Position numbers and translations under genes: made by a program. A DNA stretch of 64,000 nucleotides from an uncultured Candidatus Saccharibacteria bacterium (lineage in GTDB: Bacteria; Patescibacteriota; JACMRA01), in contig CAZVWQ010000004.1 in assembly GCA_964631275.1 (NCBI GenBank), positions 11,788 to 75,787 of the forward strand, in the 5' to 3' direction. This document shows, piece after piece, positions 21,142 through 46,693 of the stretch. The notes beneath the pieces are model-generated. The model searched no databases, was not told the DNA's origin, and saw nothing but the letters and a program-made list of their open reading frames with translations. Position 1 is the first letter of the stretch. Every line of letters starts with the position of its first letter.

Positions 21142-21256
21142 TATACCCCTTCCACTATCTTTGCGGTAATTACCCGTTAGAATTATGCTTATAATAAAAG
21201 AATTTATTTGCTTATAAAGAGCCAAATCTAGGGTAATAGTAAACGGATTGGGTAAA
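21142..21256 (+). repeat. C-family repeat, full length, right TIR degenerate
   Basis: tataccccttccactatctttgcggtaattacccgttagaatt...aaagagccaaatctagggtaatagtaaacggattgggtaaa. Confidence 0.8.
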
Positions 21257-21343
21257 ATATTACTAGACTGACCTGAACTTTAGCTAAATTATATACTAAA
21301 ACTTATACTAAAACTTTAAATTTTAAATTAACATAACCCCTCT

Positions 21344-23581
21344 GTGTCAAGAAAATCTATTGCTGCCATCCTAAAAGACAAACAAACTGACGATGACAAA
21401 GAAAAGAAAAAAACCAAAAAATCCTCGGCTGATCGTAAAAGATTAACGATTGGTTCGGCTAAAGTTTCCAAAGCTAAGATTCCTAAGATAACTAAGATCT
21501 TCAAGAGGAACTCTAGTCCTGAAGAAATCGAAAAAAGGAAAAAAAAGGCTACTGAAGATTTAGAGAAAGCTAATAAAAAAATTACAAAAAAAGGAAAAAA
21601 AAGTAGAGGAAAAGATTTTTTGGATGATGATTATGTAGAAACTAAGCCAGAGAAGGCTAAAGAACTCGTAACCCGAAAAGGTATCCTGGGCCTGAATTTG
21701 ATATCTACGTCAGAGATGAATCGAGAATTAGCTCTCCAAGATGATAGTATCGAACAGAGAGGTACTCGTCGTTATCGTGTGACTGACGATGGTGTAAAAA
21801 TAAAAATGAAAAAAGTCAGTAAAAAAAGAACAAGTAAAAATAAAAGCAAAAAACTAAAGAAATTTATTGACAGTGAGGGGGAGTTGTATAGTGCTTTCCA
21901 AGCTCAGACTTTGAGTATGAAGACTAAAATCGTAGAGGCTATTAAGCAAGGAGTGCAAAGAGGTTTTATTACCGAGGACGAGCTTTTGTACTTGATACCT
22001 AGACCAGAAAAAGACCTCGAACTTTTAGAGGATATTTTTGCTTTAGCTGAAGATTCTGGAGCCCCAGTTAGTTTTGAGAATACCTTGGACAACCTGTGGA
22101 GCGAGTTTGATGAGCAAGTTGAAGCAGAAGAAAGAGAATTAGCTCAAAAATTATCTGGAAACTTAGCTGGAGATATTGGAGGTAAAAACCTTAGCGATGA
22201 TGCAGTTCAGAATTATATTAGAGATATTTCTAGATACCCACTACTAAACAAAGAGCAAGAAGTAGAATTAGCTAAAAGAATTGAACAAGGAGATCAAGCT
22301 GGTAAGAGAGAACTTAATAATGCTAACTTAAGACTCGTAGTTCACGCAGCTAAAAAATACATGGGTCGTAATTTAGCTTTTTTGGATTTGATCCAAGAAG
22401 GAAATATCGGGCTTCTTAGAGCAGTAGAAAAATTCGACTGGAGAAGAGGGTATAAATTTTCAACTTATGCTAGCTATTGGATTGAGCAAAGTATTCGTAG
22501 AGCTTTAGCTGACCAGAGTAGGCCAGTTAGATTGCCAGTTCATGTAGAAGAAAAACTTAATAGATTCCGTAGAGAAAAAAGAGGCATGATTGACGAATTG
22601 GGTAGAGAGCCTACAGATGATGAATTAGCTGAAAAATTAGAAATAGACTTGGATACTGTTTATTATTTTAAACGTATCGCTCAAGATACTGTTTCTATTG
22701 ATACTATGATCGGACATAGTGAAGATAGCGATACTCAGATGGTAGAAATGATTGAAGATGACAACACTAGCCAACCAATTGATGTAGCCTCTAATCGGAT
22801 TTTAAGATCTCATGTCATTAAGATAATTAATGAATGCCTAGAACCAAGAGAGAAAAAAGTGATTTTACTTAGATTTGGACTTGATGGAACCGGAATTGCT
22901 CACACCTTAGAAGAGATTGGAGAAGTATTTCATGTAACTAGAGAAAGAGTCAGGCAGATCGAGGAAGTCGCTCTAAACAAAGTCAGGGAACATCCTGACA
23001 GCTACAAACTAGTTGATTTCTTAGAAGGTATTAATCCGCAGACTTTGTCGCCAACCACTGAGGAAGACGAAATGGCTAAGATGAGAGAGATTCCATATAA
23101 TAAAAAGATCAGCTCTGAAAGAGTAGTGCAAATGGTTTATAATCAAATTTTGAATAATGATTGCTCTTTATTCTTTTTACGTGGAGAAATGGGAACAGGT
23201 AAAACTACTCTAGTTCAACAAATTGGTAAAAAAATTGATCTAGAAACCGAACCAACCTCTCCAACTTTTTCTTTACTCCAAAAATATACAATCAAAGATT
23301 CTAGTATAATCAAAAAAGCTAATAATTTTGAGAGGGTTGCTCATCTTGACTTGCATAGGCTAAAGTCAGCTAAAAACCTAAAAGAAGAAGATAAAAATTG
23401 GATCGAAGAAGAATTAATTGAAACTTCTAGTATAATCTTTGTAGAGTGGCCAGATAAGCTACTTAGAGACAAGCCATTTATGCAATTTTTGGGTAGGCAT
23501 AGTCTTTTGATTGATTGTAAAATTGGTAAAAAGAAAGATTGGTATTACAGAATAAAAAAAGTAGAGCTAGATAAAATCTAA
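21344..23581 (+). CDS. rpoD: primary-type sigma-70 (RpoD) fused in frame to a TsaE (YjeE) P-loop domain
   Basis: 745 aa with GTG start. Lys-rich N-terminus. Region 2 (NLRLVVHAAKKYMGRNLAFLDLIQEGNIGLLRAVEKFDWRRGYKFSTYASYWIEQSI) and region 4 (TLEEIGEVFHVTRERVRQIEEVAL). After ...HPDSYKLVDFLEG comes a TsaE-like tail: LRGEMGTGKTTLVQQIG, PTSPTFSLLQKY, HLDLHRL, VEWPDKL. Confidence 0.8.
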   Translation: MSRKSIAAILKDKQTDDDKEKKKTKKSSADRKRLTIGSAKVSKAKIPKITKIFKRNSSPEEIEKRKKKATEDLEKANKKITKKGKKSRGKDFLDDDYVETKPEKAKELVTRKGILGLNLISTSEMNRELALQDDSIEQRGTRRYRVTDDGVKIKMKKVSKKRTSKNKSKKLKKFIDSEGELYSAFQAQTLSMKTKIVEAIKQGVQRGFITEDELLYLIPRPEKDLELLEDIFALAEDSGAPVSFENTLDNLWSEFDEQVEAEERELAQKLSGNLAGDIGGKNLSDDAVQNYIRDISRYPLLNKEQEVELAKRIEQGDQAGKRELNNANLRLVVHAAKKYMGRNLAFLDLIQEGNIGLLRAVEKFDWRRGYKFSTYASYWIEQSIRRALADQSRPVRLPVHVEEKLNRFRREKRGMIDELGREPTDDELAEKLEIDLDTVYYFKRIAQDTVSIDTMIGHSEDSDTQMVEMIEDDNTSQPIDVASNRILRSHVIKIINECLEPREKKVILLRFGLDGTGIAHTLEEIGEVFHVTRERVRQIEEVALNKVREHPDSYKLVDFLEGINPQTLSPTTEEDEMAKMREIPYNKKISSERVVQMVYNQILNNDCSLFFLRGEMGTGKTTLVQQIGKKIDLETEPTSPTFSLLQKYTIKDSSIIKKANNFERVAHLDLHRLKSAKNLKEEDKNWIEEELIETSSIIFVEWPDKLLRDKPFMQFLGRHSLLIDCKIGKKKDWYYRIKKVELDKI

Positions 23582-23684
23582 ATTTTGTTTTTAAATATTT
23601 ACCTTAAGTAAGAGACTAGTCTTACCTCAAAATAAGCTCAAAATAAGTAGTTTCTTCCTTGAAATAAACAAAAATTAATTATTT

Positions 23685-23887
23685 TATACCCTTTGAGCTA
23701 ATCGTTATGGTAATTACTGTTAAGAATTTATCTTAAATTAAGATTTATTTGCTTATAAAAGCTAAATTTAGGGTAATAATAATCATGTCTCAAAACCTAT
23801 TTTACTACTGGTTAATCCCTTTTTATAGGATCATAAGTTTTGTAAATTTGAGTTATGGGATAAGACTAATAAACGGATTGGCTATAA
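23685..23887 (+). repeat. C-family repeat interrupted by a nested B-family element
   Basis: Left part tataccctttgagctaatcgttatggtaattactgttaag...agggtaata (to 23778). Right part taaacggattggctataa (23870-23887). Confidence 0.75.
23779..23869 (-). repeat. B-family repeat nested inside C5
   Basis: ataatcatgtctcaaaacctattttactactggttaatccc...tttgtaaatttgagttatgggataagactaa, with TA on both sides (23777-23778 and 23870-23871). Confidence 0.8.
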
Positions 23888-26083: not shown

Positions 26084-26194
26084 TATACTGGTTTCGTAGT
26101 CAAATTTGATAACAGGCAGACTTAGTTCAATTTTGAAGCTATTTTATGGCTTTTTAAAATTCAAAAATGTTAATTTAGAAGTGAATTTAGCATA
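26084..26194 (+). repeat. G-family repeat, diverged
   Basis: tatactggtttcgtagtcaaatttgataacaggcagacttagttcaattttgaagctattttatggctttttaaaattcaaaaatg... aligns with 32143-32256, 47144-47258 and 50524-50642. Confidence 0.65.
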
Positions 26195-26338
26195 GAAGAT
26201 ATTTGATTACCTGTCTTTTTAAATAAATATTTTTAACTTTTAGTTGTTTCAAAAATCGTAATTTATAGTTGTTTCTAACCTAATCTTTTAAATTTTTTTA
26301 TTCAAAATCAGCTATAAACCATTTTTAATTTTTAGTTC

Positions 26339-26392
26339 TATACTCAAATTAGGACTTTTTGAATTTTTGAAGACGTCTTTTTGATATTTCAA
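26339..26392 (-). repeat. F-family repeat, 3' portion, inverted
   Basis: tatactcaaattaggactttttgaatttttgaagacgtctttttgatatttc. Directly abuts the E2 repeat. Confidence 0.6.
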
Positions 26393-26394
26393 AG

Positions 26395-26484
26395 CCTCCG
26401 CAAAAAATCAATTTTACTCCTAAATGTAGATATTTTATCGTCAAATTTACTATATTTAGTATTTTTCTTAGAAAACTGCGGAAG
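26395..26484 (+). repeat. E-family long-hairpin repeat
   Basis: CCTCCGCAaaaaatcaattttactcctaaatgtagatattttatcgtcaaatttactatatttagtatttttcttagaaaacTGCGGAAG. Confidence 0.75.
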
Positions 26485-26577
26485 TTTTAATTTATTTAAA
26501 CCTAACTGTAACCCAAACCTAGACTATAAAAAACTAAAATTTGCTTTGCGATGAGTATAAAAGTCCTTGAGATAAGT

Positions 26578-27699
26578 TTATTCTTTGTTTTTAGGTTTAG
26601 TTTTTGATTTTCTATAAAAAATAAATCCAGCACTAGAACAAATTATAACTATAGTTCCAATTAATAACCAAATATTACTAAAGATTACTCCAATCAGGAT
26701 GGTAACAAAACTTAGTACTAAAGCCACAACAAAAGTAATAATACCGATAATACCTCTACTAAGGTTTCCAAGAAAAGGAATCACGTCTGCAATTACACTT
26801 AAGGGTGCCAGGATAGACTGCAAACCAAACCACATCATCAAAAAACCAACTACTCTTAACACCCAAGTCATAGTTTTATGCTCGTTTTTTAAAGAAGAAA
26901 CTGCCTGATCTTTATCTCCAGGTCTTAGAGTGTATAAGCTTTTTCCATTTTCTGCAGTATATCTTTTGATTTCTTGAGCATCTTTTTTACCGAACAAGGT
27001 TACTTCAGAGTTAGGCCTAGATACTTCGTAAGAAATTCTAATATCGCCTATCTGAGGGTTATTAAGATTGTTAGCACCTTTGAATATATAGTTATTTTCT
27101 ATAATATAGCCTTCTTGTAAATTAACTAAATCAGAATCTAAAAAAAGCTTATCCATACTTGGATAACCAGCGTTAGAAGGGTTAAATTGATAAATTCCAA
27201 GTTTTGCTTCACTAGCTTCTATAGTTTCAGAACTAAAGGGTAATTTTGGGTTAGGAATTTGCGGAGTTTCTTTAAATTTACTAGAATCTTGTGGATTATT
27301 TGTCCACCCTGTAGTATAGGTATAGGTGGTAGTTGTCTCTTGAGTACCACCTAGATTGGTTTGTGTGTTCGAATCTACGTTTTCAATTGTAGCAAAAATC
27401 TCTACGTTTCTTCTAATTGCTAGGTATTTGTCAGAGACCAAGAATAAACCGTCTGCAATCTGTTGAGTCATTTCTATTTCGCCAGTAACTGCTACCAACT
27501 CTCCTTGATTGTCAGTAGATTGCTGGGTAGCAGATATTTCTACCGCCTCTCTAGCTAAAATAGAATTATCAAACCTTCCTTCATTCCAAAAGAGTACTCC
27601 AAAGGAAACAATAAACAAGATCAGACCAAAAATTATACCTCCAATAGAGTTAAAAAATCTCTGAAAAATATTTTTCGAAGTAGTTTCTGTATAAGCCAT
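26578..27699 (-). CDS. TMEM43/DUF1625-like membrane protein
   Basis: 373 aa. N-terminal FQRFFNSIGGIIFGLILFIVSFGVLFWNEGR pattern, a large extracytoplasmic middle, and three or four C-terminal TM helices. Family assignment from memory. Confidence 0.55.
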   Translation of the reverse strand: MAYTETTSKNIFQRFFNSIGGIIFGLILFIVSFGVLFWNEGRFDNSILAREAVEISATQQSTDNQGELVAVTGEIEMTQQIADGLFLVSDKYLAIRRNVEIFATIENVDSNTQTNLGGTQETTTTYTYTTGWTNNPQDSSKFKETPQIPNPKLPFSSETIEASEAKLGIYQFNPSNAGYPSMDKLFLDSDLVNLQEGYIIENNYIFKGANNLNNPQIGDIRISYEVSRPNSEVTLFGKKDAQEIKRYTAENGKSLYTLRPGDKDQAVSSLKNEHKTMTWVLRVVGFLMMWFGLQSILAPLSVIADVIPFLGNLSRGIIGIITFVVALVLSFVTILIGVIFSNIWLLIGTIVIICSSAGFIFYRKSKTKPKNKE

Positions 27700-27867
27700 G
27701 TGATTCCTAAAAAATTATTTATTTTTAATATGTACAAATTTAAATGTTTTAGCAATTTATTGCTTTGCTATGTAGCCATATTTTTATTTGTATAGTTGAT
27801 CTATACTAAACTCTTCCGCAAATCAAGTGTTTTTTCAGATTTACAAAACTTTGATCCTATAAAATAA

Positions 27868-28275
27868 TTATACTCAATTTAGTTTCAAAATTTAGATTTT
27901 TTAATCTTAAAAGGCTACAAAATACCTTTAAAATAGAATTAAGTTTAGCTTTGGTGTTAAATTTGGCTATGAAATGGTATAATAGTCAACCTAAAAATAG
28001 TTTTTGAGACAATTTTTTAGTCTTTTTAAACAAATATTTTTAACTTTCTGTTATTCAAAAATTGTAATTTAGAGCTGATCTTAAGCTAAGATTTAGATTT
28101 TTTTGTTCAAAATTAAATACAAGTAATTTCTTTATTTTTACTTTAAATTGGTAAAAAATTTCAAATATACTAAACTATTAACTACTCAGTGAGCTTTTTT
28201 GACTGTGTTTTTTTATTTAATCAAACTAAAATCTTCAGTTAAATCATAATTTAGTTAGCATTTGGGTATAGTTCT
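27868..28275. repeat. left arm of a perfect 408-bp inverted repeat (G module 27868-27981, spacer module, A module 28166-28270)
   Basis: Exact reverse complement of 31849-32256, checked block by block. Identity stops at 27867/32257 and at 28276/31848. Confidence 0.95.
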
Positions 28276-28681
28276 ATAATTTAACCAAAATAGCATGAAT
28301 TAACGAAGCATTCTGCCTATCAATATAAGACTGACAGAATTTAACATATTTATTAATCAAAGCTGTTCTTTGTTCTGTGAATCCTTCTTTAAGCATATCA
28401 ACCTCATACAAAAAGGTAAGCAATACTGCTTGCGAAAGAGGGTAAGTTTTATTCCAATTCTGTAAATATTTCTCTAGCCTAGAGATGCTTTCGAGGTATT
28501 TAGAGTGTATATTTTTTAGATCTTTTTTTAGATTTAATTCTACTTTTTTGTCTAGTGATGAATATCCATCATCTAACCAAAACTCTTCGGTAATTAACAA
28601 AAAATTATCTGGGTCATAAGTATTAATTAGTTTTTGATAAACTAAAGAAATTAAAGAGTTACGATATTTCTTAGTCCACAT
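28274..28681 (-). CDS. NusB-like antitermination-factor homologue (tentative)
   Basis: Start MWTKKYRN at the ATG overlapping the rpmF stop (TGATG). C-terminal LSQAVLLTFLYEV...ALINKYVKFCQSY...ASLIHAILVKL resembles the NusB ILRLAxYEL...VxINEAVELAK...FVNGVL pattern. Its stop overlaps the last 2 nt of the repeat arm. Confidence 0.45.
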   Translation of the reverse strand: MWTKKYRNSLISLVYQKLINTYDPDNFLLITEEFWLDDGYSSLDKKVELNLKKDLKNIHSKYLESISRLEKYLQNWNKTYPLSQAVLLTFLYEVDMLKEGFTEQRTALINKYVKFCQSYIDRQNASLIHAILVKL

Positions 28682-28872
28682 CAAGTTGCAAACTTTATAA
28701 GAATTTTTTTGCCTCGATAAAAACCGCAACTAGCACAGACCATGTGAGGCATTACTTTGGCACCGCAATTAGAGCATTTAGCTAGTTGTTTGAGTTCAAC
28801 TTGCCCATGACCTGGAGCTTTACGTCTGTTATTTCTTCTTCTTTTGGTTAGTCTTTTTTTTGGTACAGCCAT
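28681..28872 (-). CDS. rpmF: 50S ribosomal protein L32
   Basis: MAVPKKRLTKRRRNNRR...CSNCGAKVMPHMVCASCGFYRGK. Confidence 0.9.
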   Translation of the reverse strand: MAVPKKRLTKRRRNNRRKAPGHGQVELKQLAKCSNCGAKVMPHMVCASCGFYRGKKILIKFAT

Positions 28873-28882
28873 AATCTAATTG

Positions 28883-29176
28883 TTATTTTTTGCTATTTTC
28901 AAGTGGCAAGATATTTACAAAAGTTCTTTTTTTTAAATTTCCAGTGAACACTCTTACTTTTTTTTGCTTAAATTGAACTAAGCCATCACATTCCGCAAAC
29001 AAGGTATCATCAGTGCCAATGCCAACATTTTTACCAGGATGAAATTTAGTTCCTCTTTGCCTAACTACTACATTTCCAGTACGGGCTAATTGATCACCAA
29101 ATACTTTAACTCCTAATCTTTGAGCATTAGAGTCTCTACCGTTACTGGATGAACCTGCTTGTTTTTTGTGAGCCAT
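28883..29176 (-). CDS. rpmA: 50S ribosomal protein L27
   Basis: [61 protein letters not shown]. Confidence 0.95.
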
Positions 29177-29305
29177 AATTAATTATTTTAGTTGCTTGAG
29201 TTTTGTATTTAAAAAAATATAAGCTAAAAATCTAGAAAAACTTATAAAAATAGAGTTTGCTGAAGCCATGTAGTTTTGGATTAAATTAAAATTAATAAAA
29301 AAATA

Positions 29306-29701
29306 CTAACGCTTGCTCCATTGCTCTCTTTTTCTGTTTTTTCTGAGACCAGCGATTTTGGGAGCAACTTTACGAATATCAGTAGTTAAATAACCATGCA
29401 TCCTAGCTAAGGTTTTATAGCCTTCGTCAAATTTTACTAAAGATTTAGCTATAGCTAATCTACATGCTTCGGCTTGTCCTTTGGCACCTCCACCTTTAAC
29501 AAAGATATCGAACCTACCAGCACTTACACCCATATTAGTAATGGCATTAAGAATAGTTCTTTGAAAAAAAACTTCAAAATAATCTTCTATTTTCTTACCA
29601 TTTATTTTTATTTCTATGTTTTTTTTGGTGTCGTAAAACTTAGCCCTAGCTGAGGCCCTTTTTCGTCTACCTACTCCATAATAATATTGAGATTCTGACA
29701 T
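29306..29701 (-). CDS. rpsI: 30S ribosomal protein S9
   Basis: GVGRRKRASARAKF...GGGAKGQAEACRLAIAKSL...GYLTTDIRKVAPKIAGLRKNRKREQWSKR. No rplM upstream. Confidence 0.95.
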   Translation of the reverse strand: MSESQYYYGVGRRKRASARAKFYDTKKNIEIKINGKKIEDYFEVFFQRTILNAITNMGVSAGRFDIFVKGGGAKGQAEACRLAIAKSLVKFDEGYKTLARMHGYLTTDIRKVAPKIAGLRKNRKREQWSKR

Positions 29702-30059
29702 AACGTTAATTATTAATAAAAATTACCCTAGATTTTTTGTCAACCTTTTGATTACTGCTGTTACCATAAAATCATCTCATAATCTATCTTAAGGTTCAAG
29801 TCTACATTCAAAATTAAAGCTTAATTATTATATTGTAAATTTGTATTTTTTTAGTTTTTCTGAAAAATTAAATTCACAATTCTTGTTTTAAGTTTAATTT
29901 ATTTAAGAAGGTAAAAGAAGTAAAAAATAGTTTTTTGAGCTCAATAATGAGATAATATTTTAATTGTAAAAAAGCTAAATTTTGACGAAAACTGAGAAAT
30001 TACTAATTCTTATTTTTATTCTTTCATTATAAAACATCTTTAAATAAAAAAATCATATT

Positions 30060-31487
30060 ATGAACGCAATTATTAGCACTTTTTCGATCCTTTTTTGGTT
30101 TGTTGTAATTTTAGTTCCGCTAGTTATTATTCATGAGTTCGGGCATTTTATTATGTCTAGACTGAATGGAGTTAGAATCCCTGAATTTGGAGTTGGCTTT
30201 CCTTTGACTAAAAGACTTTTTTATAAAAGATGGAAGGGTGTAATTTGGTCTTTTTACCCACTTTTAATAGGTGGATTTGTCAGAATTTGGGGAGATAGTG
30301 ATGCTATTGACGAAGCTTACGACGAAATCAAAAAAGATAAGCAAAAAACTGCAGAAGATTACATCCAAAATCGTTTTCAAGAAATTTTAGCTAATAGAGA
30401 TCTCAAGTTCTTTTTGGAAGATAATAATCTAGAATACACTTCAGATTGGAAAGAATTTGAAAATTCAAAGTTTGTTAAAGGTAAAGATGCAGATGAAGAA
30501 AAAGATAAAGTTTCTGATTTTGAAGATAAATATAAACAAATCTCTACTTTAATCACCTGGGAGTTAGAAAAAGAATTAAAAGCCAAAGATACTTTTTTTA
30601 ATAAAAATTGGTTACAGCAAACTTTAATTATTTCAGGTGGAGTGATTTTTAATTTTTTAGCGGCTATCGGTCTTTTTTGGATACTTTTTAGCTTAGTCAA
30701 CCCACCACAACTACCTCTAGTTCTGCAAACTATAGAGCAATATAAGGAATATGTAGACATTACTAATCAAAGTAATACCAAGGTTGCCTCAGTGACTAAA
30801 GATTATCCAGCTTACGAAATTGGAATTAGACCTCAAGATGAGATAATCTCATTTGCTGGAGTAGAAATGAATACAATTAATTCTCAAAATGAATTTAGGA
30901 ATTTAGTCCTTAACAATCGAGATACAGAGATTACCGTTGTTTATTTTTCTAATGAATCTAAAGAAACCGTTAGCAAACAAACAATAATTAATGAAAAAGA
31001 AGGAAAGTATCTGTTTGGAGTGGGAAATCTTTACCGAGAAGTTGATTATCAACCTAAAGGAATCATTCCTGGTTTTCAATTAGCTATAAATAGAACTTTT
31101 TATATTACTAATGTTAGCTTTGGAGCTTTGGGAGAGATCATCTTAGCTCTTAACCCTTTTGCTGAAGATCGCTCAGCCCTAAATTATGTAGCTGGGCCAA
31201 TCGCTGTAGGTAGTATTAGCACTACTATTTTTAAACAAGCTGGGATAGCTGGAATTTTAGAATTAATGGCTTTAGTTAGTATTAGCTTGGCTGTTTTTAA
31301 TATGCTTCCAATTCCCGCCTTAGACGGAGGTCGCTGGATAATCTTAACAATTAATAAAATAACAGGAAAAAGAAATCGTAAAATTGAAGCTACAGTAATT
31401 AGTGTAACCTTTGTGATATTGTTATTGCTAGCTACTATAATTGCTATTAATGACACAAGAGGAGCTATAACTGGAAGATTTAGATAA
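30060..31487 (+). CDS. rseP: RseP/site-2 protease family (M50) zinc metalloprotease with PDZ region
   Basis: HEFGHF zinc motif in TM1, a central soluble segment, and C-terminal NMLPIPALDGG (LDG motif). 475 aa with a long charged insertion after TM2. Confidence 0.85.
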   Translation: MNAIISTFSILFWFVVILVPLVIIHEFGHFIMSRLNGVRIPEFGVGFPLTKRLFYKRWKGVIWSFYPLLIGGFVRIWGDSDAIDEAYDEIKKDKQKTAEDYIQNRFQEILANRDLKFFLEDNNLEYTSDWKEFENSKFVKGKDADEEKDKVSDFEDKYKQISTLITWELEKELKAKDTFFNKNWLQQTLIISGGVIFNFLAAIGLFWILFSLVNPPQLPLVLQTIEQYKEYVDITNQSNTKVASVTKDYPAYEIGIRPQDEIISFAGVEMNTINSQNEFRNLVLNNRDTEITVVYFSNESKETVSKQTIINEKEGKYLFGVGNLYREVDYQPKGIIPGFQLAINRTFYITNVSFGALGEIILALNPFAEDRSALNYVAGPIAVGSISTTIFKQAGIAGILELMALVSISLAVFNMLPIPALDGGRWIILTINKITGKRNRKIEATVISVTFVILLLLATIIAINDTRGAITGRFR

Positions 31488-31505
31488 GGCTCTAGAACTA
31501 GACAT

Positions 31506-31609
31506 TAATCATGTCTTTAAACTTATTTTTTTACTGCTTATTAATACTTTATTTTATAGGATTAAATAGGATCAAAGTTTTGTAAATTTGAGTTATGGGA
31601 TAAGACTAA
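31506..31609 (-). repeat. B-family repeat
   Basis: taatcatgtctttaaacttatttttttactgcttattaat...aaagttttgtaaatttgagttatgggataagactaa. Begins 19 nt after the rseP stop. Confidence 0.8.
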
Positions 31610-31813
31610 TATTCACCTATTTCAAGGTAAAAGTGGCTATTTTGAACTTATTTTGAGACAAGACTAATAGTTAATTCATATTCTGTTTTACGCCATCTCC
31701 ACTCACATTTTTTAAGGTCAGAACTTCGGCAAAACTGAAGATTTCATTTATTTTTTAAACAAATTTTAACTTATATTTTGTTACCTAAGTTAGCTAAATT
31801 ATACCTCAGAAGC

Positions 31814-31850
31814 TATACCCAATACGCCCTAAATTTAACTCTTCATAAAG
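31814..31850 (-). repeat. C-family repeat, left half only, abutting the inverted-repeat arm
   Basis: tatacccaatacgccctaaatttaactcttcataaagaac. Truncated at the same internal point as the copy at 6612-6660. Confidence 0.65.
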
Positions 31851-32256
31851 AACTATACCCAAATGCTAACTAAATTATGATTTAACTGAAGATTTTAGTT
31901 TGATTAAATAAAAAAACACAGTCAAAAAAGCTCACTGAGTAGTTAATAGTTTAGTATATTTGAAATTTTTTACCAATTTAAAGTAAAAATAAAGAAATTA
32001 CTTGTATTTAATTTTGAACAAAAAAATCTAAATCTTAGCTTAAGATCAGCTCTAAATTACAATTTTTGAATAACAGAAAGTTAAAAATATTTGTTTAAAA
32101 AGACTAAAAAATTGTCTCAAAAACTATTTTTAGGTTGACTATTATACCATTTCATAGCCAAATTTAACACCAAAGCTAAACTTAATTCTATTTTAAAGGT
32201 ATTTTGTAGCCTTTTAAGATTAAAAAATCTAAATTTTGAAACTAAATTGAGTATAA
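31849..32256. repeat. right arm of the perfect 408-bp inverted repeat (A module 31854-31958, spacer module, G module 32143-32256)
   Basis: Exact reverse complement of 27868-28275. Confidence 0.95.
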
Positions 32257-32265
32257 AAGTAACAA

Positions 32266-33318
32266 TTATCTCATATATTGAGTATAAGTGTCATTCCAAA
32301 ACCCATTTAAATACTTAGTTACTTCAAATTTTTGAACTATTTCTAAATTAGGATAGCTCAAAGTATAGACCACAAAGTAATCTGAATTGTTTTTATCAGA
32401 AATAGATAGATTTAACCTTGCCGGAAATTCATCTTGATACTTAGAAAATTTGATTGAACGGTTTTCTGTATCAATCAGGTTTAGTTTTTTTTGTATATCT
32501 TCAATAAGCAAGCTAACCTCTCCTAGGTAATTATCAGCCACCCATAAGTTACAAGGTTCGGACTTGGCTAGATTAGAGCAATTATTATCAGCATAAAAAG
32601 TTTGATTTTCAATTCTGATTGTATCGTAAGCTTTTGCTTCTGAAAACCATCCTTCATCTGGAAACACAGGTACAGCTAAAGATCTAGAAAAATTACTTAA
32701 GTCATAGCTAGTCCCTTCAGTAGAGGCAAAATAACTGATTGCTGTAATACCTTTTTTGGTTAGAGCTTGCACTCTATAAGAATTAGTTGAAGGAATAGCG
32801 TCAACTTCCTTAGGATTTAGTTTAATTATCTGAATAGCTTTTAGGTTTTTGTCTGGGCAATTTTCAGGTAGCCACCAACCTTGAGTCTTAGAATTAGCAG
32901 CCAGTTCGATTTCTAAAGGAGCAGATTGAGCAAAGTCAAGCTGACACACTTGGTCAGCTAAATTAGTAATTTTAATTGATTTTTTTTGTTGCTGATTTTG
33001 CGATTGTAGGTTCTCTACTGCCAATCTAAGTTCTACTTCCTGGGCTTCGATTTCTTTATCTTCATTTCTAATTTTATCTTCTGGCTTAATAATTTTGTTG
33101 GTAAACAAGACTCCATTAGCATCTTGACTCATAGCCCTAAGGGAATAAAAACCAACTGTACCCATAGTTACAATAAGACAAAAAACAAACACACTTGGTA
33201 AAAAATTTAGTTTTTTGTTATTATTAATATAGTTGTCGGAATAAGTATTTACAAACTTATTAGAGTCTACAAAATCTTCTATCTTTTTTTTGTTTCCATT
33301 ATTAAAAAACATATACAA
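32266..33318 (-). CDS. hypothetical membrane-anchored extracytoplasmic protein
   Basis: 350 aa with a single TM (LPSVFVFCLIVTMGTVGFYSL) and several Cys pairs in the ectodomain. Its stop lies 10 nt from the repeat arm. Confidence 0.5.
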   Translation of the reverse strand: MYMFFNNGNKKKIEDFVDSNKFVNTYSDNYINNNKKLNFLPSVFVFCLIVTMGTVGFYSLRAMSQDANGVLFTNKIIKPEDKIRNEDKEIEAQEVELRLAVENLQSQNQQQKKSIKITNLADQVCQLDFAQSAPLEIELAANSKTQGWWLPENCPDKNLKAIQIIKLNPKEVDAIPSTNSYRVQALTKKGITAISYFASTEGTSYDLSNFSRSLAVPVFPDEGWFSEAKAYDTIRIENQTFYADNNCSNLAKSEPCNLWVADNYLGEVSLLIEDIQKKLNLIDTENRSIKFSKYQDEFPARLNLSISDKNNSDYFVVYTLSYPNLEIVQKFEVTKYLNGFWNDTYTQYMR

Positions 33319-33789
33319 AAAGTAACCTTAGGTTAACCATTTAACAAAATTTAACATTAAAAAACTTTAGTATCTTGTCAAAGAAATTAAAATTTACTAA
33401 ATTACATGAACCTCATTTTTTTAAAAATATGTAAATTTTTCAGCCCGATTACATTTTTCAGCAAGCTAGTTTTACTCTACTAAACAAAACATTTTTGAAA
33501 TATAAAGTTTTTACTACTATTTTTGCCCTAAATATCAATAAAATTAGATTTCAATTAAAAGTAACTTAAAATTTACTAAAATTTTTTAATAATCAAGTTT
33601 TTAGAGATTTTTTGTGACTAAAAATAAAATAGTGCTTAAAAACCTATATATTAGCCTTGCCTTAAAACCTCTCAATATCTTTATTTTTTTATTAAATGAA
33701 GTAAATGACTACTTTATATAAATTCAGTACTTTTTACCTTAAAACAAACTAAAAATAGGTTATTTTTTTAACAAGACAAAGTAATTCTC

Positions 33790-34320
33790 TTACCCTCCAT
33801 CAAGCTGTATATTCATTTTTGTTCTAGTAAACATAAAAAGTATTGGACCTAAATCCCATAACCAAGGTACAAAAAACCAAGGTATTAATTGAGCTTCTCC
33901 AACTTTGACTCCGTCAACCAGGCGTACCAAAAAACCAGGTACCCAGGTGGGCATTGGTTGAGTAAAAATCTGATTAAGATTATAAAGATAACTTCCAAAA
34001 ACCAAAATAAAAAGAATTAATAATTCCCATCCAGGTGCATCCTCTTCTTTGATATACATACCCAGAGGTTGAATAATAATTCTACGAATTAAAAGAGTTA
34101 TTATAAAGCAACTAAAAACAAAAACTAACCAACTCTCACCTACAGAATCTATTGGATTTTCGAAGGCTGAAGAAATCATCTTACCTACAAAATTAGACCA
34201 CCTAATAATTTGACCATTAATTAGCCTAAACAACAGAATACTAATCAAACTAGCAATGTAGTATGAAGATAAGGTCTTTCGGCTAAAGCTAAAATCGTCA
34301 AAAGGGTTCATGCAATCCAA
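33790..34320 (-). CDS. hypothetical integral membrane protein
   Basis: 176 aa with multiple TM helices. Overlaps the upstream ORF by 13 nt. Confidence 0.45.
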   Translation of the reverse strand: MDCMNPFDDFSFSRKTLSSYYIASLISILLFRLINGQIIRWSNFVGKMISSAFENPIDSVGESWLVFVFSCFIITLLIRRIIIQPLGMYIKEEDAPGWELLILFILVFGSYLYNLNQIFTQPMPTWVPGFLVRLVDGVKVGEAQLIPWFFVPWLWDLGPILFMFTRTKMNIQLDGG

Positions 34321-34700
34321 AAATTATTAAGTAAAAAAGTAAAAAACATGGAAAAGCCAAAATAACAAATAGTTAAAATAATAATAGTTAAAATAGTAGC
34401 TAAAACTAATAATAAATTTTTATTAAGACTGTTTTGGATTTCTTTAACTCTAGGGTTAATCCAAGACTCCGAGACTAATAAAGAAAAAGTCATAATTAAA
34501 AAAATAGCTACTCCACAAATAACTAAAATCTGCCATCTTTGCAAATCCATAAACCATTCATCAAAATCAAATATGCCAGCAAACCAGGAAAAACTTAATC
34601 CAATTACTACACTACAAATACTAAATACAAACAGAGCCAAGCTAAAGGTTAAGGCTAATTTACTAATTTTGCTTTGCCAGTTTAAATCAAGATTTGCCAT
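34308..34700 (-). CDS. hypothetical integral membrane protein
   Basis: 130 aa with about four TM helices. Likely co-transcribed with 33790..34320. Confidence 0.45.
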   Translation of the reverse strand: MANLDLNWQSKISKLALTFSLALFVFSICSVVIGLSFSWFAGIFDFDEWFMDLQRWQILVICGVAIFLIMTFSLLVSESWINPRVKEIQNSLNKNLLLVLATILTIIILTICYFGFSMFFTFLLNNFWIA

Positions 34701-35242
34701 TATGTTTTAATTATATTTTTATTTCAGAATTTTTGTAAAAATTTCTTATGCTAGATAAACTCCTAAACAAAAACTTTAACTTATCTTAGCTTTAACTCTA
34801 TAAAGTAAAGTAAATTTTAGTTTTTTTGAGTCTAAATTTTGATTTCAGCTACATCTAAGTAATATCAAAGGCAAGTACTTACAAACTAAAAAACCTTAGT
34901 TTGAATTTTTAAATACTTATTTCTAATGAAAGCCTCTATACAAAGATAAGTAATAAATCACTTTTTTAATTCTATAAGATTAGCTTTGTCTGATTTCAAA
35001 AAAATAATCTGTTTTTGTTTATTTTCAAAAAAGTACTAATTTTTATGCAAAACTATCACTTTTATTGTATTTAAAAAAAATTTATGGAAGCAAAGGATTA
35101 TACAAAGTAGGGGACTGTTTTAGGTGTATACTTACCTTATAAAAGCTATCTGCAATCTACCCTGATAAAACTACTTTTATTGTCTTTTTGATAGTAAGAT
35201 TTATTAGAAAGTAGCTAAGACTTTTTCAAAAATATTTTTGTA

Positions 35243-35388
35243 CTTGCCACAAACCAAATTTTAGTTTTTTTAGAATTTAAATTTTACCTTTAATTAGGTC
35301 TAATCAAGATCAAAAAGGTCTAATCAAGATCAAAAACCAATCATATAAAAACTAAAAAAGTTTTAATTTAAATTGATTTGAGTATAAA
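35243..35388 (+). repeat. F-family repeat containing a perfect 20-bp tandem duplication
   Basis: ccacaaaccaaattttagtttttttagaatttaaat...gttttaatttaaattgatttgagtataaa. The unit ggtctaatcaagatcaaaaa occurs at 35297-35316 and again at 35317-35336. Confidence 0.75.
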
Positions 35389-35836
35389 AATTTTTTCAAT
35401 ATTTTTACTGTCAACGAAAACCTAAAAAAGATTGTTTTAAGGCTAAAGAGATATTAAATAAGCTGTGTAAGTATAAAATTAAAATAATTAGTGATTACAA
35501 ATATTCTACTAGACTTGAAGCTTAGTTATAAAAAACAAACTTTATATCTTGTCTAGTTGCCAAATTTATTTATTTAATTCTATGTGTAGTCAAGAAGGTA
35601 GTATCTTATAAGGTTTTTGGTTTTAGCAAAATTAAACTAAAAGACTGCTAGCACAAGTCTTTTATTGATATAGCCTCTTTGCTTATACTTATGTAATTAC
35701 CGTTAATAATTTAGGATAACAGTAAATATTTTGAGTATAAGTAATCGCTTGCCATTGTATAAGAATATAAAAATTTACTATCTCTTTTTGACAAGATTAA
35801 TTTTCAGAAAAAATATTCCAAAAAAATCTTTCTATA

Positions 35837-35953
35837 ATGTTAAAGCAGATAATTTTATTTCTTATCGGTTGTGGGGTAGCAGCGTTAGTTTTTGGGCTAT
35901 TATCTTTAGCTAATTATATACTTGTACAAACCCAGTTATTTCTTTTTTCATGA
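35837..35953 (+). CDS. 38-aa hydrophobic micro-ORF translationally coupled to mraY
   Basis: MLKQIILFLIGCGVAALVFGLLSLANYILVQTQLFLFS. Its TGA overlaps the mraY ATG (ATGA). Confidence 0.35.
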   Translation: MLKQIILFLIGCGVAALVFGLLSLANYILVQTQLFLFS

Positions 35954-37062
35954 ACCAGCTTGATACAGCTCAAATCTTAGAATTGTTCAGGGTACTTACT
36001 TACTCTATGGCTAGCTTTTTGATTGGGATGTGGCTAGGTCCTAGTATAATCAGCCTACTTAATTGGCTTAAGTTTTGGAAAAAGACTTCCAGAAAACTAT
36101 CTACTACTGGAGAAGAGTTAGTAGTAACTAAAAAATTTTATCAAGAAAACGAAGAACAAAAAAAAGTTCCTCGGGCGGGCGGTATTTTGATTTGGATAGT
36201 AACTATGTCTATGGCTTTATTTTTTTGGTTGATTATGAAAATCCAAACTAACAATACTACTCAATTTTTAAACTTTATTTCTAGAACTGAAACTTTCATT
36301 CCTTTAGGTACTTTCTTTTACGGTTCTGTCGTTGGGTTTATTGACGATGCTTTAGTTACTATGGAAACTGGAGGAAACTACATGGCTGGTGGGCTAAAAC
36401 TTTCTCAAAGAGCTATTTTGGTTATTATTTTAAGCCTTTTAATTGGGTTATGGTTTCATTTTCAGATTGATTTTCATACTTTTAATATCTTTTTTTGGGA
36501 AATTAACTTAAACAATTATGTTTTGTTTGGACAGTCACTCGGCTGGTTGATTATACCGATTACCACTTTCATTCTTTTAGGTATCTGGGGTAGCGTAATT
36601 ATTGACGGCTTTGATGGAATTGCCGCTGGAACTTTCATTCCAATTTTTGTGTGTTTTGCGGGCCTTGCTTTCGTTAGAGAATTATATGACATCTCGACCT
36701 TAATGATGGTTATTAGCGGTTCGACTCTGGCCTATCTTTGGTTTAACCTACCTCCAGCCAAATTCTATATGGGAGACACTGGGGCTGCTGGATTGCTGCT
36801 AACTCTTGGAGTTGTGGCCATCTTAATTAATTATATATACGTTTTACCAATTGCTGGCTTGATGCTTATACTGACTGTAGGCTCGGCTTTTATACAGATT
36901 TTTTCTAAGACAGTATTTAAAAAGAAAATTTTACTAGCTGCTCCTCTACATCACCACTTTGAGGCCATGGGCTTTACTAGAAATAAAATAACCTATGCCT
37001 ATTGGTTTGTTAGTATAATTATGTCAGCTATCGGGTTTTTTATTGGATATTATTTTAGATAG
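35950..37062 (+). CDS. mraY: phospho-N-acetylmuramoyl-pentapeptide transferase
   Basis: 370 aa, polytopic. VPRAGGILIW, GFIDDALV, IDGFDGIAAG, MGDTGAAGLL and APLHHHFE motifs. Confidence 0.85.
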   Translation: MNQLDTAQILELFRVLTYSMASFLIGMWLGPSIISLLNWLKFWKKTSRKLSTTGEELVVTKKFYQENEEQKKVPRAGGILIWIVTMSMALFFWLIMKIQTNNTTQFLNFISRTETFIPLGTFFYGSVVGFIDDALVTMETGGNYMAGGLKLSQRAILVIILSLLIGLWFHFQIDFHTFNIFFWEINLNNYVLFGQSLGWLIIPITTFILLGIWGSVIIDGFDGIAAGTFIPIFVCFAGLAFVRELYDISTLMMVISGSTLAYLWFNLPPAKFYMGDTGAAGLLLTLGVVAILINYIYVLPIAGLMLILTVGSAFIQIFSKTVFKKKILLAAPLHHHFEAMGFTRNKITYAYWFVSIIMSAIGFFIGYYFR

Positions 37063-37103
37063 CTTTTAACCTTACACCCCTTACTTAATAAAAAATCTGT
37101 ATT

Positions 37104-38107
37104 TTAAAAACCCAAATATCGAACTCCAGACTTGATTAAATAGATACTAAAAAGCAGGGTATGAATCTATGAAAAGTAAAAACATCCCTGCTATAGAAGA
37201 ATTAACTTCTAACAAAGATTTGTCTAGTATAGATACTGAAGCAACTGATTTCTTAAACCAAGGTTTTAAATCTAAAACAGGTAGACCTCCTAAGATGAAT
37301 TTTAGTGATTTGATATATTGCCTAGAACTTAAAAGAAAATACTCTTGTGAAACTTGGATTGGATTGTATAGGTGTTTAGAAGATAAAGTTAAGGTTTATA
37401 GATCAAGTCTTAAATTACCTACATATGCTAATTTTCTTAAATCAATAAAAAGATTGATATTTTACTTATTTAGATTAATTACTTATCAAACTAAAGTAAA
37501 TAGACAACTATTTCTAAAACAAGATGTTAGAATAGCTTTTGTAGATTCAACGCCTTTATCTGTTTGTAATATTAAAAGATCTAGTAGACACAAGACTATG
37601 AATAAAATTGGTAATGAAAATAATCAGAAATTTAAGCCTAATTATTCAAAATCTACTATGGGTTGGTACTATGGATACAAACTACATCTTACTTGTGATT
37701 GGGAAACAAAAGAAGTTATTGATTTTCAATTCTCAGATAGTAAATTAGATGATAGACAGTATCTAAAAGAAATAATTAAAAAACAAAGATAAATTCTACA
37801 ATACACAGACAATGTTTGTAGCTGATAAAGGTTATCAAGCAAAATGGCTAGATGAATTAGCTAAAGAAACAAACAATTACCTAATTACAGGTAAAAAGAA
37901 AAGTAAAAATCAAAAAACCTTAGCTTCACAATTTGATATTTATCTACTCCACACCAGAGCTAGAATAGAATCTGTGTTTTCTAATCTTAAACTTAATTGT
38001 TTTCTTACAAGCACCAGGTCTAGATCAGTACTAGGTTATCTCTTTAATTATGTACTTTCTATGTATTATTTAGTGTTTAAGAATAGTTTCGATATTTAGG
38101 TATTTAA
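37104..38107 (+). mobile_element. IS982/IS5-like insertion sequence (about 1.0 kb) with imperfect TIRs
   Basis: Left end TTAAAAACCCAAATATCGAACT (37104-). Reverse complement of the right end is TTAAATACCTAAATATCGAAACT (-38107). Contains a two-piece DDE transposase. No clear target duplication seen. Confidence 0.75.
37169..38099 (+). pseudogene. DDE_Tnp_1-type (IS982/IS5-like) transposase split by a +1 frameshift
   Basis: ORF 37169..37792 (AFVDSTPLSVCNIKRSSRH, GWYYGYKLHLTCD, FSDSKLDDR) and ORF 37812..38099 (FVADKGY...RARIESVFSNLK). The second frame is open from 37776, so the overlap spans the A6 run 37778-37783. Confidence 0.75.
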
Positions 38108-38158
38108 TAGCTTTAATTAAACTTAAACTTTTAGGTATATTAAACTAGTCTTGTCCCT

Positions 38159-40192
38159 TTATTTTTCTACAACTCTAAAATAATCTAGATCAGCTGAGAA
38201 TTTTTGAATTTGCCTACCTTCTCCTAAAAAAAACTTTGGCATAAACTCAACATAAGTTAACCTAATTGGATTGATATAAGCACCAAAGAGGCTAAGCACT
38301 AGATTAAAAATATGACCTATAGCTAAAATCAAAATCGCTAAAACAATACCCAAACCAGGATCAGTAGCTTCATAAATCATTCCAGCCAAGAGGTTGACAA
38401 TCGTAGCAATTACCCCGCCAGTTAAGCCAATAGCAATAATACGAGTAAAAGACATTAAGTCTGCTCCCATCTGCACAACTCCATATAAGCCTCTAGGACC
38501 AAATAAAAACCCTAAAAACTTACCTACAAATTTCTTAGCTTCATTAAAAATCAATAAACCAAAGACCGAAACTCCGAGTAAAATTTGAGCTGCAAAGTTA
38601 AGTTCTTGGCTGGTCATTACAAAATAAGCAACCGCTGAGAAAATAAAGAAAACCCAGGCAAACTGACCTAAAGCTTTATTATACTCACTACGTTTAATTG
38701 AATTAACAATTCTAATCATATAGGCAACCAAAAGGTTAAAAAAACCTATCAAGATAGCCAAAGACATCATAAAAATAATAGGGCTGGCTCCACCTAGCTC
38801 ATTATTAAGAAAATTATTCACTGGAAGGTTAGCTTCAGGAGTAAGAACATCAACTAACTGAAACTTGGCTAAGAATTGATGAATTGGAGTTGAGTCTTCT
38901 ATTGGTGTTCCGGTCAAACTTTTCATAAAATCACTATTAAAAAAGTTTCCAGCCCAAGAATTAGTTAGAGTTCCTAAAACTATAGTTGCAATACCTGAGA
39001 AGAAAAATAGTGAAAAAGTACTTTGGAATTCTTTTTTTAGTTTAGTAAAGAATAAAAAATATCCAGTAAATACAGAAAGAATTAAGCCATACAAAGCGTC
39101 ATTAAGACAAAAAGCAAAGAAAATCACAAAAAACAAAGCTAAAATATTAGTTGGATCAACTTCTTTATTGTCAATAGTTCCGATTGACTGAGCTATACTA
39201 TGAAAACCATTCAGTGAGCCATCGTTTTCCCAATCAAAAACTTCTTGATTCCAATCTACTCTTTGGTAAGGCAAGTCTTTCTGAGCCAAAAATTCCTTTA
39301 CTTGCTCTTCTTCTTTTTCTGAAACAGAAACTATAGCAAATATACTGTTACTCGATTCTGTTGGTCTAAAAACTTTATTAATTGATTCTGCAATTGATAT
39401 TTCTACCTGAATAGATGCATGTAGAGCTAATAGGCTAGTTAAAATTTCTTGACTAACTTTTTGATTTTCTACCCCCAGCCTAGACATGGCGGAATTATTC
39501 TCACTAATTTCTTTGTCAATTTTTTGGATTATTTCTTCAACTGTGTATAATTCTAAATCAGCATACTCACTCTTGCTAATAAATAATTTAACAGCCTCTA
39601 AAGTGTTATCATCAAAAATCAAAACTTGATATTCTCCTATACTTTCTAGCTCTACTCTAGGTCTTACCATATCATCAGCGTCTTCTATTTCACCTTGAAG
39701 TTGTAGTTTTTTAATGGCCTCCCAGCTATTATTAATATAAATATCAAAATCAGCTATAAAATTAGCAAAACTTTCGCTAAAAAGTTTTTTTTTGTCTTGA
39801 TTATTCCGACTAAATTCAATAATATTGTTTTTTTGGTTTATTAAATTATCTTCTTGGTCTATTAGCTCAGCAATTTCTAATAAATTACTTCTATTTTTTT
39901 TGGCTTTTTCTAGGTCTTCGCTAGAACCTTCTATGCGGTCGTCAACAAAAACTGACAAAAAACCACTTTTGCGGTTTTCTTCGATAACTTTATTAAGTAT
40001 CTGTAATTCTTTTTGCAGATCTTTGATTTCTACTTTAGGAAAATAATAATCTACATTTACCCATTCTTTGCCTAATTCTTTTGGATCTAAAACTTCAAAT
40101 CCAAAACCTGAGAAAACTAGACTTTCAAAAAAATTCTGAACTTGATTTTCCTTAAAAGAAATTAAAAAATTTTGAGTTTTAACTAGAGACAT
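38159..40192 (-). CDS. ntpI: V-type ATPase subunit I (a-subunit homologue)
   Basis: 677 aa. Coiled-coil-rich soluble N-terminal half and a polytopic C-terminal half containing MSFTRIIAIGLTGGVIA (conserved Arg helix). Confidence 0.8.
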   Translation of the reverse strand: MSLVKTQNFLISFKENQVQNFFESLVFSGFGFEVLDPKELGKEWVNVDYYFPKVEIKDLQKELQILNKVIEENRKSGFLSVFVDDRIEGSSEDLEKAKKNRSNLLEIAELIDQEDNLINQKNNIIEFSRNNQDKKKLFSESFANFIADFDIYINNSWEAIKKLQLQGEIEDADDMVRPRVELESIGEYQVLIFDDNTLEAVKLFISKSEYADLELYTVEEIIQKIDKEISENNSAMSRLGVENQKVSQEILTSLLALHASIQVEISIAESINKVFRPTESSNSIFAIVSVSEKEEEQVKEFLAQKDLPYQRVDWNQEVFDWENDGSLNGFHSIAQSIGTIDNKEVDPTNILALFFVIFFAFCLNDALYGLILSVFTGYFLFFTKLKKEFQSTFSLFFFSGIATIVLGTLTNSWAGNFFNSDFMKSLTGTPIEDSTPIHQFLAKFQLVDVLTPEANLPVNNFLNNELGGASPIIFMMSLAILIGFFNLLVAYMIRIVNSIKRSEYNKALGQFAWVFFIFSAVAYFVMTSQELNFAAQILLGVSVFGLLIFNEAKKFVGKFLGFLFGPRGLYGVVQMGADLMSFTRIIAIGLTGGVIATIVNLLAGMIYEATDPGLGIVLAILILAIGHIFNLVLSLFGAYINPIRLTYVEFMPKFFLGEGRQIQKFSADLDYFRVVEK

Positions 40193-40202
40193 TGTTTTTT
40201 GT

Positions 40203-40475: not shown

Positions 40476-40557
40476 ATTTTTGGTTGAGTGGTTTTAGAAA
40501 AATGTTTAATTTAGTATTAATTTTTAATCTGCTTAAGAATAGATTGAGATTTTTATG

Positions 40558-40683
40558 TTCAACACAAATCAAATTTTAGTTTTTTTTGAAATTTAAATTT
40601 TTCGTTTTAGTTATGCCTAATCAGTGTTAAAAAGAAGTATTTGAAAATTAAAAAGCCTTAATTTGGGTTGATTTGAGTATAAA
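40558..40683 (+). repeat. F-family repeat
   Basis: caacacaaatcaaattttagttttttttgaaatttaaat...aaaaagaagtatttgaaaattaaaaagccttaatttgggttgatttgagtataaa. Confidence 0.75.
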
Positions 40684-46692: not shown

Positions 46693-46693
46693 A

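Follow-up and report, generated by a model that had tools for sequence, protein, structure and literature searches.

A 408-nucleotide inverted repeat around a ribosomal-protein and RseP gene block, probably a recent segmental duplication, in a Patescibacteria-like genome

Does a small block of ribosomal-protein genes invert back and forth in a bacterial chromosome, or does the long inverted repeat that brackets it record a rearrangement that took place once? The question is raised by a stretch of contig CAZVWQ010000004.1 (64,000 nucleotides, nt; hereafter the window, in which all positions are counted from the first letter), where two 408-nt copies of one sequence stand in opposite orientation around a 3.57-kb segment that carries ribosomal-protein genes on one strand and a gene for an RseP-type protease on the other. 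The original prediction, made from the letters alone, held that RecA-type recombination between the two arms would invert the segment and that both isomers could coexist in the population. Here we report that the inverted repeat is a genuine outlier in the window and has boundaries that recur in independent read graphs, and we suggest that the arms are probably a recent two-copy inverted segmental duplication of a non-coding mosaic of ~0.4 kb, which would serve as a passive substrate for homologous recombination and possess no machinery of its own.

The inverted repeat and its support in independent assemblies

The whole unit, from arm through genes to arm, spans 4.39 kb and has three parts (ORF, open reading frame; aa, amino acids).

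27868 to 28275, no strand assigned: left arm, inverted repeat, 408 nt, non-coding, without an ORF of at least 23 aa
28276 to 31848, no strand assigned: enclosed single-copy segment, 3573 nt, unbroken over 28246-31599 in Logan contig L001
31849 to 32256, no strand assigned: right arm, inverted repeat, 408 nt, non-coding

Direct comparison bore out the identity that had been claimed for the arms: they are exact reverse complements over all 408 nt, with 0 mismatches, and identity is lost abruptly at 27867/32257 and at 28276/31848, the sequences beyond being unrelated. The output of the repeat finder stretched the pair to 411 nt with 1 mismatch, at 28276, shown as a rounded 100%. In 20 first-order Markov simulations of the window, the longest exact inverted match expected by chance was 16-22 nt. 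Self-comparison of the window returned 92 repeat pairs, nearly all of them 70-90% identical and no longer than ~150 nt; the arms are the sole long pair at near 100% and hence a clear outlier, the longest further intergenic match to them being 304 nt at 73%. Likewise, 31-mers recur in the arms only, besides two stretches of 36-37 nt. The pair is thus inverted, highly identical and long, which is the structure of a recombination-prone long inverted repeat.

The arms themselves are non-coding, the longest ORF in an ORF scan of both being 22 aa. A structured RNA was considered as an account of the arm sequence and rejected, given that the arms had no Rfam match with E < 0.049 and folded no better than shuffled sequence (z-scores of −0.74 and +0.85). 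A 35-nt string from the arm had no match in genome or Joint Genome Institute metagenome contig collections, among which the source genome is not included.

Evidence from outside the deposited contig comes from Logan contigs, which are independent k=31 assemblies of runs SRR7048222 and SRR7048223. They were retrieved by exact-protein look-up, with RseP, the TMEM43-like gene on the left flank and the right-flank ORF (ATG start at 33312) as queries. Three of them reach an arm.

26532 to 27897: contig L002, which ends 30 nt inside the outer edge of the left arm
28246 to 31599: contig L001, which starts 30 nt inside the inner edge of the left arm
32227 to 42873: contig L008, which starts 30 nt inside the outer edge of the right arm

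At three arm edges out of four, a contig therefore halts exactly k−1 = 30 nt into an arm. This is the signature of a unitig that meets a node with two neighbours, indicating that each repeat end has at least two continuations in the reads. The outer end of the repeat is reached by two different unique flanks, L002 and L008, and the inner end by the interior contig, L001. The graph thus has the form that a two-copy inverted repeat requires, and, provided that the flanks and the interior are single-copy, the only linear path through it runs from flank through arm, interior and reversed arm to the other flank. We therefore regard the inverted repeat as genuine. The two orientations of the interior yield identical 31-mers, so that the k=31 graph is blind to orientation, and the printed orientation is one of two with which the short-read graph agrees. 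In these exact-protein look-ups, no other assembly yielded a contig that crosses an arm, the returned contigs being Logan k=31 contigs only, which halt at the arm edges. The site should accordingly be flagged as one where neither the printed orientation nor the perfect identity of the arms can be trusted without spanning reads.

Modules of the arms and of the surrounding intergenic DNA

That each arm is a mosaic of dispersed-repeat modules, and that the other copies of these modules have visibly diverged from the arms, were both upheld by matches elsewhere in the window, where modules A, B and C each have three to five further copies at 65-89% identity (MITE, miniature inverted-repeat transposable element).

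27868 to 28004 (mirror 32120-32256), plus strand: module A, MITE-like, starting with TTATACTCAAT and containing ...ATGGTATAAT at 27974-27983
28005 to 28165 (mirror 31959-32119), plus strand: module B, the spacer module of the original prediction, with dispersed matches
28166 to 28270 (mirror 31854-31958), plus strand: module C, MITE-like, ~105 nt, bounded by TATACTAAAC...TTTGGGTATA
31540 to 31613, plus strand: a further repeat-family module (families D1/D10), inside the enclosed segment downstream of rseP

Module A matches 50642-50503 at 84% and the A-part (~47120-47258) of the copy at 47003-47258 at 73-89%. Matches to module B lie at 47003-47135, 26213-26340 (79%), 12661-12742 (85%) and 969-1081 (69%), and module C is 80-89% identical to 2968-3074, 14315-14419, 12446-12553 and 6659-6745. 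Counted along the arm, positions 1-137 align with 50642-50503 at 84%, positions 1-299 with 47258-47003 at 73%, and positions 293-406 with 2967-3074 (89%), 14315-14422 (88%), 12441-12553 (82%) and 6659-6745 (80%). The module downstream of rseP has a partial inverted copy at 27828-27865, just outside the left arm, and, at the point where contig L001 ends (31599), contains an exact match of 37 nt to 23835-23871.

Modules A and C, together with another family (6827-6959, 9826-9954 and 40553-40683), are 105-135 nt long, start with TATACYC or TATACTA and end with GRGTATA. The expected number of TATACYC/GRGTATA motifs in the window is 13.3±3.5, and 40 were observed; for motif-bounded pairs spaced 80-135 nt apart, the expectation is 0.18 and the observed count 10. 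The terminal motifs are short (7-10 nt), and the TA dinucleotide found at both module ends is indistinguishable from part of the terminal repeat. Of the motif sites, 29/40 are intergenic, though only about one-third of the window is, and they have no preferred orientation relative to genes (~14 copies pointing toward a gene start and 15 not). Being mostly intergenic and without orientation preference, the modules look like MITE-type elements rather than promoters. Short, non-coding, multi-copy and dispersed, with terminal inverted repeats, they fit the class of MITE-like, mosaic intergenic repeats, to which the BIME/REP sequences of Escherichia coli, the pneumococcal BOX A-B-C elements and the Correia elements of Neisseria belong. 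As in those families, the arms are assembled from dispersed non-coding modules (here of ~105-135 nt) that recombine into mosaics, two of the module types having inverted termini. Unlike them, the arm modules bear no sequence relation to described families (no Rfam match) and were not found in the loci of relatives that we compared, and their mobility is only putative.

The same organization extends over the window, whose intergenic DNA consists of a limited set of dispersed modules of ~40-135 nt. They comprise 45 families of direct repeats, together with 72 inverted pairs that reach at least 35 nt, and identity is mostly 70-90%; the TATACYC...GRGTATA ends are common to several of these families. 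Example sites are as follows.

Dispersed-module sites, first group: 2967-3074, 5171-5310, 6659-6962, 9816-10055, 12441-12788, 14313-14423, 16714-16812, 17695-17850
Dispersed-module sites, second group: 21060-21254, 23682-23873, 26100-26547, 35234-35388, 40549-40683, 42770-42876, 46693-47260, 50503-50651, 60067-60171

We detected no paralogous proteins in the window that would account for the modules by co-duplication with genes, and the modules may represent a lineage-specific expansion of MITE-like elements. We also observed a 113-nt direct repeat (3079-3191 and 26389-26500; 88%) with an exact core of 36 nt (3146-3181 and 26455-26490), the first copy of which overlaps the start of an ABC-ATPase ORF region (3159-3443).

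Origin of the repeat pair and the case for inversion

The view that the arms are a recent inverted segmental duplication draws on an identity far beyond chance, on the arms being the only near-100% pair, on the read-graph edges and on a rearrangement-prone genome context. A single event would most likely have duplicated the arm and inverted the enclosed rpsI-rpmA-rpmF-nusB-like/rseP block together; an inversion by staggered breaks or by replication template switching could do so and would leave one old and one new junction at each arm. The duplication would be recent on a mutational time scale, and general homologous recombination could thereafter invert the 3.57-kb block and hold the arms identical by conversion. 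A heavily rearranged host genome with an unusual wealth of dispersed intergenic repeats would provide a setting prone to such events. Two features of the arm edges bear on this. Identity between the arms passes the conserved end of module C by 5 nt (GGGTATA, then GTTCT) and spans three different modules, which fits the copying of a segment better than the transposition of a single element. Further, other module copies keep ~10-nt homology across the left-outer and right-inner junctions and not across the left-inner and right-outer ones, which weakly suggests that each arm has an old and a new junction, as a single inversion with duplication is expected to leave.

Several observations weigh against a recent duplication. 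The junction homology extends over only ~10 nt of AT-rich sequence, the two junctions that lack it abut genes, where module homology is not expected, and no short-homology or duplication scar that might identify a mechanism was seen at the junctions by eye. No independent contig could be retrieved for the right-inner edge (31849), and, the visible sequence being 64 kb of the genome only, a further copy of the arm may lie elsewhere. Moreover, the perfect identity may partly be a product of the assembler, which could have merged copies differing by a few single-nucleotide polymorphisms into one node and emitted that node twice. Since near-identical copies collapse in this way, perfect identity is weaker evidence for recency or conversion, and recency is not proven. 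The step from zero mismatches to very recent duplication, gene conversion or active recombination, as originally proposed, hence stands in its observation and loses in its force, for assembler collapse gives the same result. Comparison of the junctions as a guide to which arm is the original yielded homology extensions of ~10 nt only.

Two of the alternatives would make the bracketed arrangement either no part of the genome or the trace of a mobile unit. In the former case, the second arm or the join through the arm would stem from a mis-resolved repeat. The source is apparently a short-read metagenome assembly, a repeat of 408 nt exceeds any k-mer used, dispersed repeats are plentiful in the genome and the right-inner junction has no independent support; yet in the independent assemblies of two runs, branch points coincide exactly with three arm edges out of four, and with the L002 and L008 flanks sharing the outer end and the L001 interior exiting the inner end, a single linear path is left, given single-copy flanks and interior, in which only the orientation of the interior is ambiguous. 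We therefore judge an artefact improbable. A mobile unit seems more improbable still, whether it consists of the 408-nt A-B-C mosaic, transposed as a single non-autonomous element, or of the entire 4.39 kb, as a composite-transposon-like unit with outer TATACTC ends. The modules do share TATACYC...GRGTATA ends in the numbers given above, the arm starts with TTATACTCAATTT and ends, in reverse complement, with CTATACCCAAATG, and a split IS5-like transposase gene lies 5 kb away. Against this, inspection of the four arm edges by eye showed no target-site duplication, direct or inverted. The outer 8-nt edges (TAAAATAA left of the left arm and AAGTAACA right of the right arm) show no direct or inverted match, nor do the inner ones (ATAATTTA right of the left arm and CTTCATAA, or TTATGAAG in reverse complement, left of the right arm). 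The identity does not stop where the conserved part of module C ends but goes on for another 5 nt, the ends of the neighbouring insertion sequence (TTAAAAACCCAAATATCGAA) are unrelated to those of the arms, and no transposase is encoded in the arms or the interior. The arms thus lack both the transposase in flanking elements and the target-site duplication by which composite transposons are recognized.

The remaining alternatives grant the repeat and ask more of it. RecA-type recombination requires a homology of a few tens of bp, a length that 408 nt far exceeds. The structural premise of the original prediction, a long, identical and genuine inverted repeat around 3.57 kb, proved right, and recombination between such arms is mechanistically reasonable. 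An active flip-flop of the plastid type, in which the block inverts, both isomers coexist and conversion keeps the arms identical, would explain the length and identity of the arms, agrees with a read-graph topology that fits both orientations, and has precedents in plastid genomes (PMC7145664) and in the unstable chromosome rearrangements of Staphylococcus aureus (PMC6778178). However, there is no direct evidence for a second isomer and no arm-spanning contig in any other assembly, the identity of the arms is more simply explained by recency or by assembler collapse, and the promoters of the enclosed genes most likely lie in the internal divergent spacer (29702-30059), so that the expression of these genes would not obviously be altered by a flip. 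We therefore consider an active flip-flop doubtful, and it is unlikely that two isomers coexist in the natural population of this ultra-small bacterium through arms that recombine, flip the ribosomal-protein/RseP block and stay identical by conversion. A dedicated regulatory switch, in which a site-specific recombinase would flip the segment as a phase-variation inverton and alter the expression of the flanking membrane-protein genes, is the least probable of all. Its attraction is a −10-like TATAAT on the minus strand across the junction of left arm and flank (GAGTATAA followed by T), with the TMEM43-like gene 170 nt downstream, and the prospect that inversion would change which of the inner transcription units is read out into that gene. 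The junction motif, however, occurs 40 times in the window without orientation preference (~14 toward a gene start and 15 not), promoter sites fall below shuffled sequence (17 versus 24.0) in a promoter and terminator scan of 27600-32400 that showed no enrichment, and a Pfam scan of the ~48 ORFs in the window that reach 90 aa detected no invertase, integrase, serine or tyrosine recombinase or other recombinase domain. Invertons typically combine repeats of ~10-40 bp with a dedicated recombinase, and the arms are ~10 times longer than such repeats. The locus therefore offers neither short repeats of tens of bp nor, among the scanned ORFs, a dedicated recombinase. Among the scanned ORFs of the 64-kb window, recA was not seen either.

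The likeness of the locus to known systems is one of geometry. Plastid inverted repeats typically measure tens of kb and contain genes, those for rRNA among them, and their two isomers have both been demonstrated. Identical inverted copies around a single-copy segment, in an arrangement that permits inversion and homogenisation of the arms, are common to them and to the locus described here, whereas the arms here belong to a bacterial chromosome and are 408-nt non-coding mosaics, and a second isomer was not seen. With the Hin/Gin/Fim-type invertons, the locus shares a segment between inverted repeats and a possible effect on the expression of neighbours, and differs from them in its 408-nt arms and in the absence of any recombinase among the scanned ORFs. 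Plastid genomes occur in two versions that differ in single-copy orientation, as seen by long reads (PMC7145664). In bacteria, unstable chromosome rearrangements have been described in S. aureus (PMC6778178), and inversions are known between inverted repeats formed by insertion sequence copies, rrn operons and prophages (PMC6778178, PMC9584773, PMC8743559, PMC12199158). Such inversions are likewise attributed to homologous recombination and are a known source of bacterial structural heterogeneity, whereas the repeats here are short non-coding mosaics, the segment is 3.6 kb and inversion was not observed. If the flip-flop were real, the locus would be a miniature chromosomal analogue of the plastid system, and a flip would change which of the inner transcription units is read outward into the flanking membrane-protein genes. 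If both isomers do coexist, they would constitute a compact and easily assayed case of recombination-driven structural heterogeneity in a bacterium of the Candidate Phyla Radiation (Patescibacteria), a group whose genome dynamics have received little study.

A further consequence had been proposed, namely, that inversion would flip the ribosomal-protein genes relative to the direction of replication. We found no demonstrated consequence of this kind: gene orientation in the window has no strong strand bias, and GC skew merely tracks the coding strand.

Genes, relatives and genome context

The enclosed and flanking genes are as follows.

26578 to 27699, minus strand: left flanking gene, TMEM43-family membrane protein (Pfam TMEM43, E=1.1e-51; on Logan contig L002)
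28274 to 28681, minus strand: NusB-like gene, divergent, 135 aa (Pfam NusB, E=0.014, below threshold)
28681 to 28872, minus strand: rpmF, ribosomal protein L32 (Pfam Ribosomal_L32p, E=2e-18)
28883 to 29176, minus strand: rpmA, ribosomal protein L27 (Pfam Ribosomal_L27, E=6.7e-34)
29306 to 29701, minus strand: rpsI, ribosomal protein S9 (Pfam Ribosomal_S9, E=2.9e-27)
30060 to 31487, plus strand: rseP-type site-2 metalloprotease, M50 with PDZ (Pfam Peptidase_M50, E=7.2e-42)
32266 to 33312, minus strand: right flanking gene, orphan protein of 348 aa (exact product on Logan contig L008)

The predicted gene content, with nusB-like, rpmF, rpmA and rpsI on one strand and rseP on the other, was confirmed, four of the genes being assigned by Pfam, and the stop codon of the NusB-like gene (28274-28276) indeed shares 2 nt with the left arm. 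A word-based homologue search with the NusB-like ORF found none. The ORF is, over its full length, 30-31% identical to the fourth gene of the corresponding cluster in relatives (the L009 and L011 orthologues), and the L009 orthologue attains the Pfam NusB cut-off (23.3 versus 23.1 bits), so that the name NusB-like appears justified. Outside the arms, the start of the TMEM43-family gene lies 168 nt from the left arm, and the stop of the orphan gene, the product of which had no Pfam match, lies 9 nt from the right arm.

The best RseP match is 57% identical, and the named matches are to "Patescibacteria group bacterium" and "candidate division SR1"; by its protein matches, the host is Patescibacteria-like. 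Its nearest relatives are distant (RseP at most 57% and S9 at most 71% identical). The rpsI-rpmA-rpmF-nusB-like cluster is kept in relatives (S9 64-69% identical), with different flanks each time.

Window, 28274-29701: rpsI-rpmA-rpmF-nusB-like cluster
Relative locus L009, 8001-9509: the same cluster
Relative locus L010, 1217-2725: the same cluster
Relative locus L011, 8001-9517: the same cluster

In these cluster loci, rseP never adjoins the four genes, and the neighbours of rseP differ in every relative compared, without synteny. The conserved cluster with its shifting flanks, together with the differing rseP neighbourhoods, shows that the scrambling of gene order in this lineage reaches the scale of small operons. 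The arrangement at the window locus, which had been proposed as something to look for in related genomes, thus found no counterpart, neither the arm repeat nor the adjacency of rseP being present, and the relatives are too distant to inform on orientation. Their loci also contained no long inverted repeat, the longest being a 44-nt pair at 84% in L011. This pair (7238-7281 and 9851-9894, 84% complementary) brackets the same ribosomal-protein/NusB-like cluster and one upstream ORF, which may be fortuitous or may point to a tendency of the cluster to lie between such repeats. The four-gene cluster is itself non-canonical, in that rpsI is not preceded by rplM, nor rpmA by rplU, and the surroundings of the cluster are reshuffled.

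The window has a GC content of ~30% and uses the standard genetic code, under which ORFs cover ~66% of it, versus ~80-87% in the longer of the relative loci compared (L003-L012). This low coverage, with spacers of 0.3-1.8 kb (e.g., 19524-21327 and 34711-35913), is unusual for a small-genome lineage, and the long spacers are packed with dispersed repeat families. An alternative code in which UGA specifies an amino acid was considered as the source of the long spacers and rejected, as ORF coverage rose only from 0.65 to 0.67. The genome in the window is therefore the repeat-rich extreme of its lineage, with an intergenic space filled by modular MITE-like repeats that probably drive extensive scrambling of gene order.

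The only mobile-DNA gene among the scanned ORFs, the split gene for the IS5-like DDE transposase, is divided between two ORFs (37169-37792 and 37812-38099). The element to which it belongs measures ~1 kb (37104-38107) and is bounded by terminal inverted repeats of 20 nt (37104-37123 and 38088-38107) that are 90% complementary. Contig L008 runs unbroken through it (SRR7048222, k=31), indicating that it shares no 31-mer branch with another locus in that graph.

Two essential genes, both adjoining repeat modules, appear to be truncated or split. A valyl-tRNA synthetase-like ORF (264 aa, 8580-9374, minus strand) has only the anticodon-binding and C-terminal arm domains, and an NAD-dependent DNA ligase ORF (268 aa, 41910-42716, plus strand), which is identical on L008, has only the adenylation domain. 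Split genes, remnants of pseudogenes or the breakpoints of rearrangements could each account for these fragments. An unusual fusion is encoded by a 745-aa ORF (21344-23581, plus strand), which joins a full primary sigma-70 factor (regions 1.2, 2, 3 and 4) to a C-terminal TsaE domain (t6A biosynthesis ATPase). Finally, a direct repeat of 711 nt at 65% identity (61859-62557 and 63275-63970, 1416 nt apart) probably reflects tandem paralogous genes for surface proteins, with WxL-interacting or EssA-like domains in 61329-62612.

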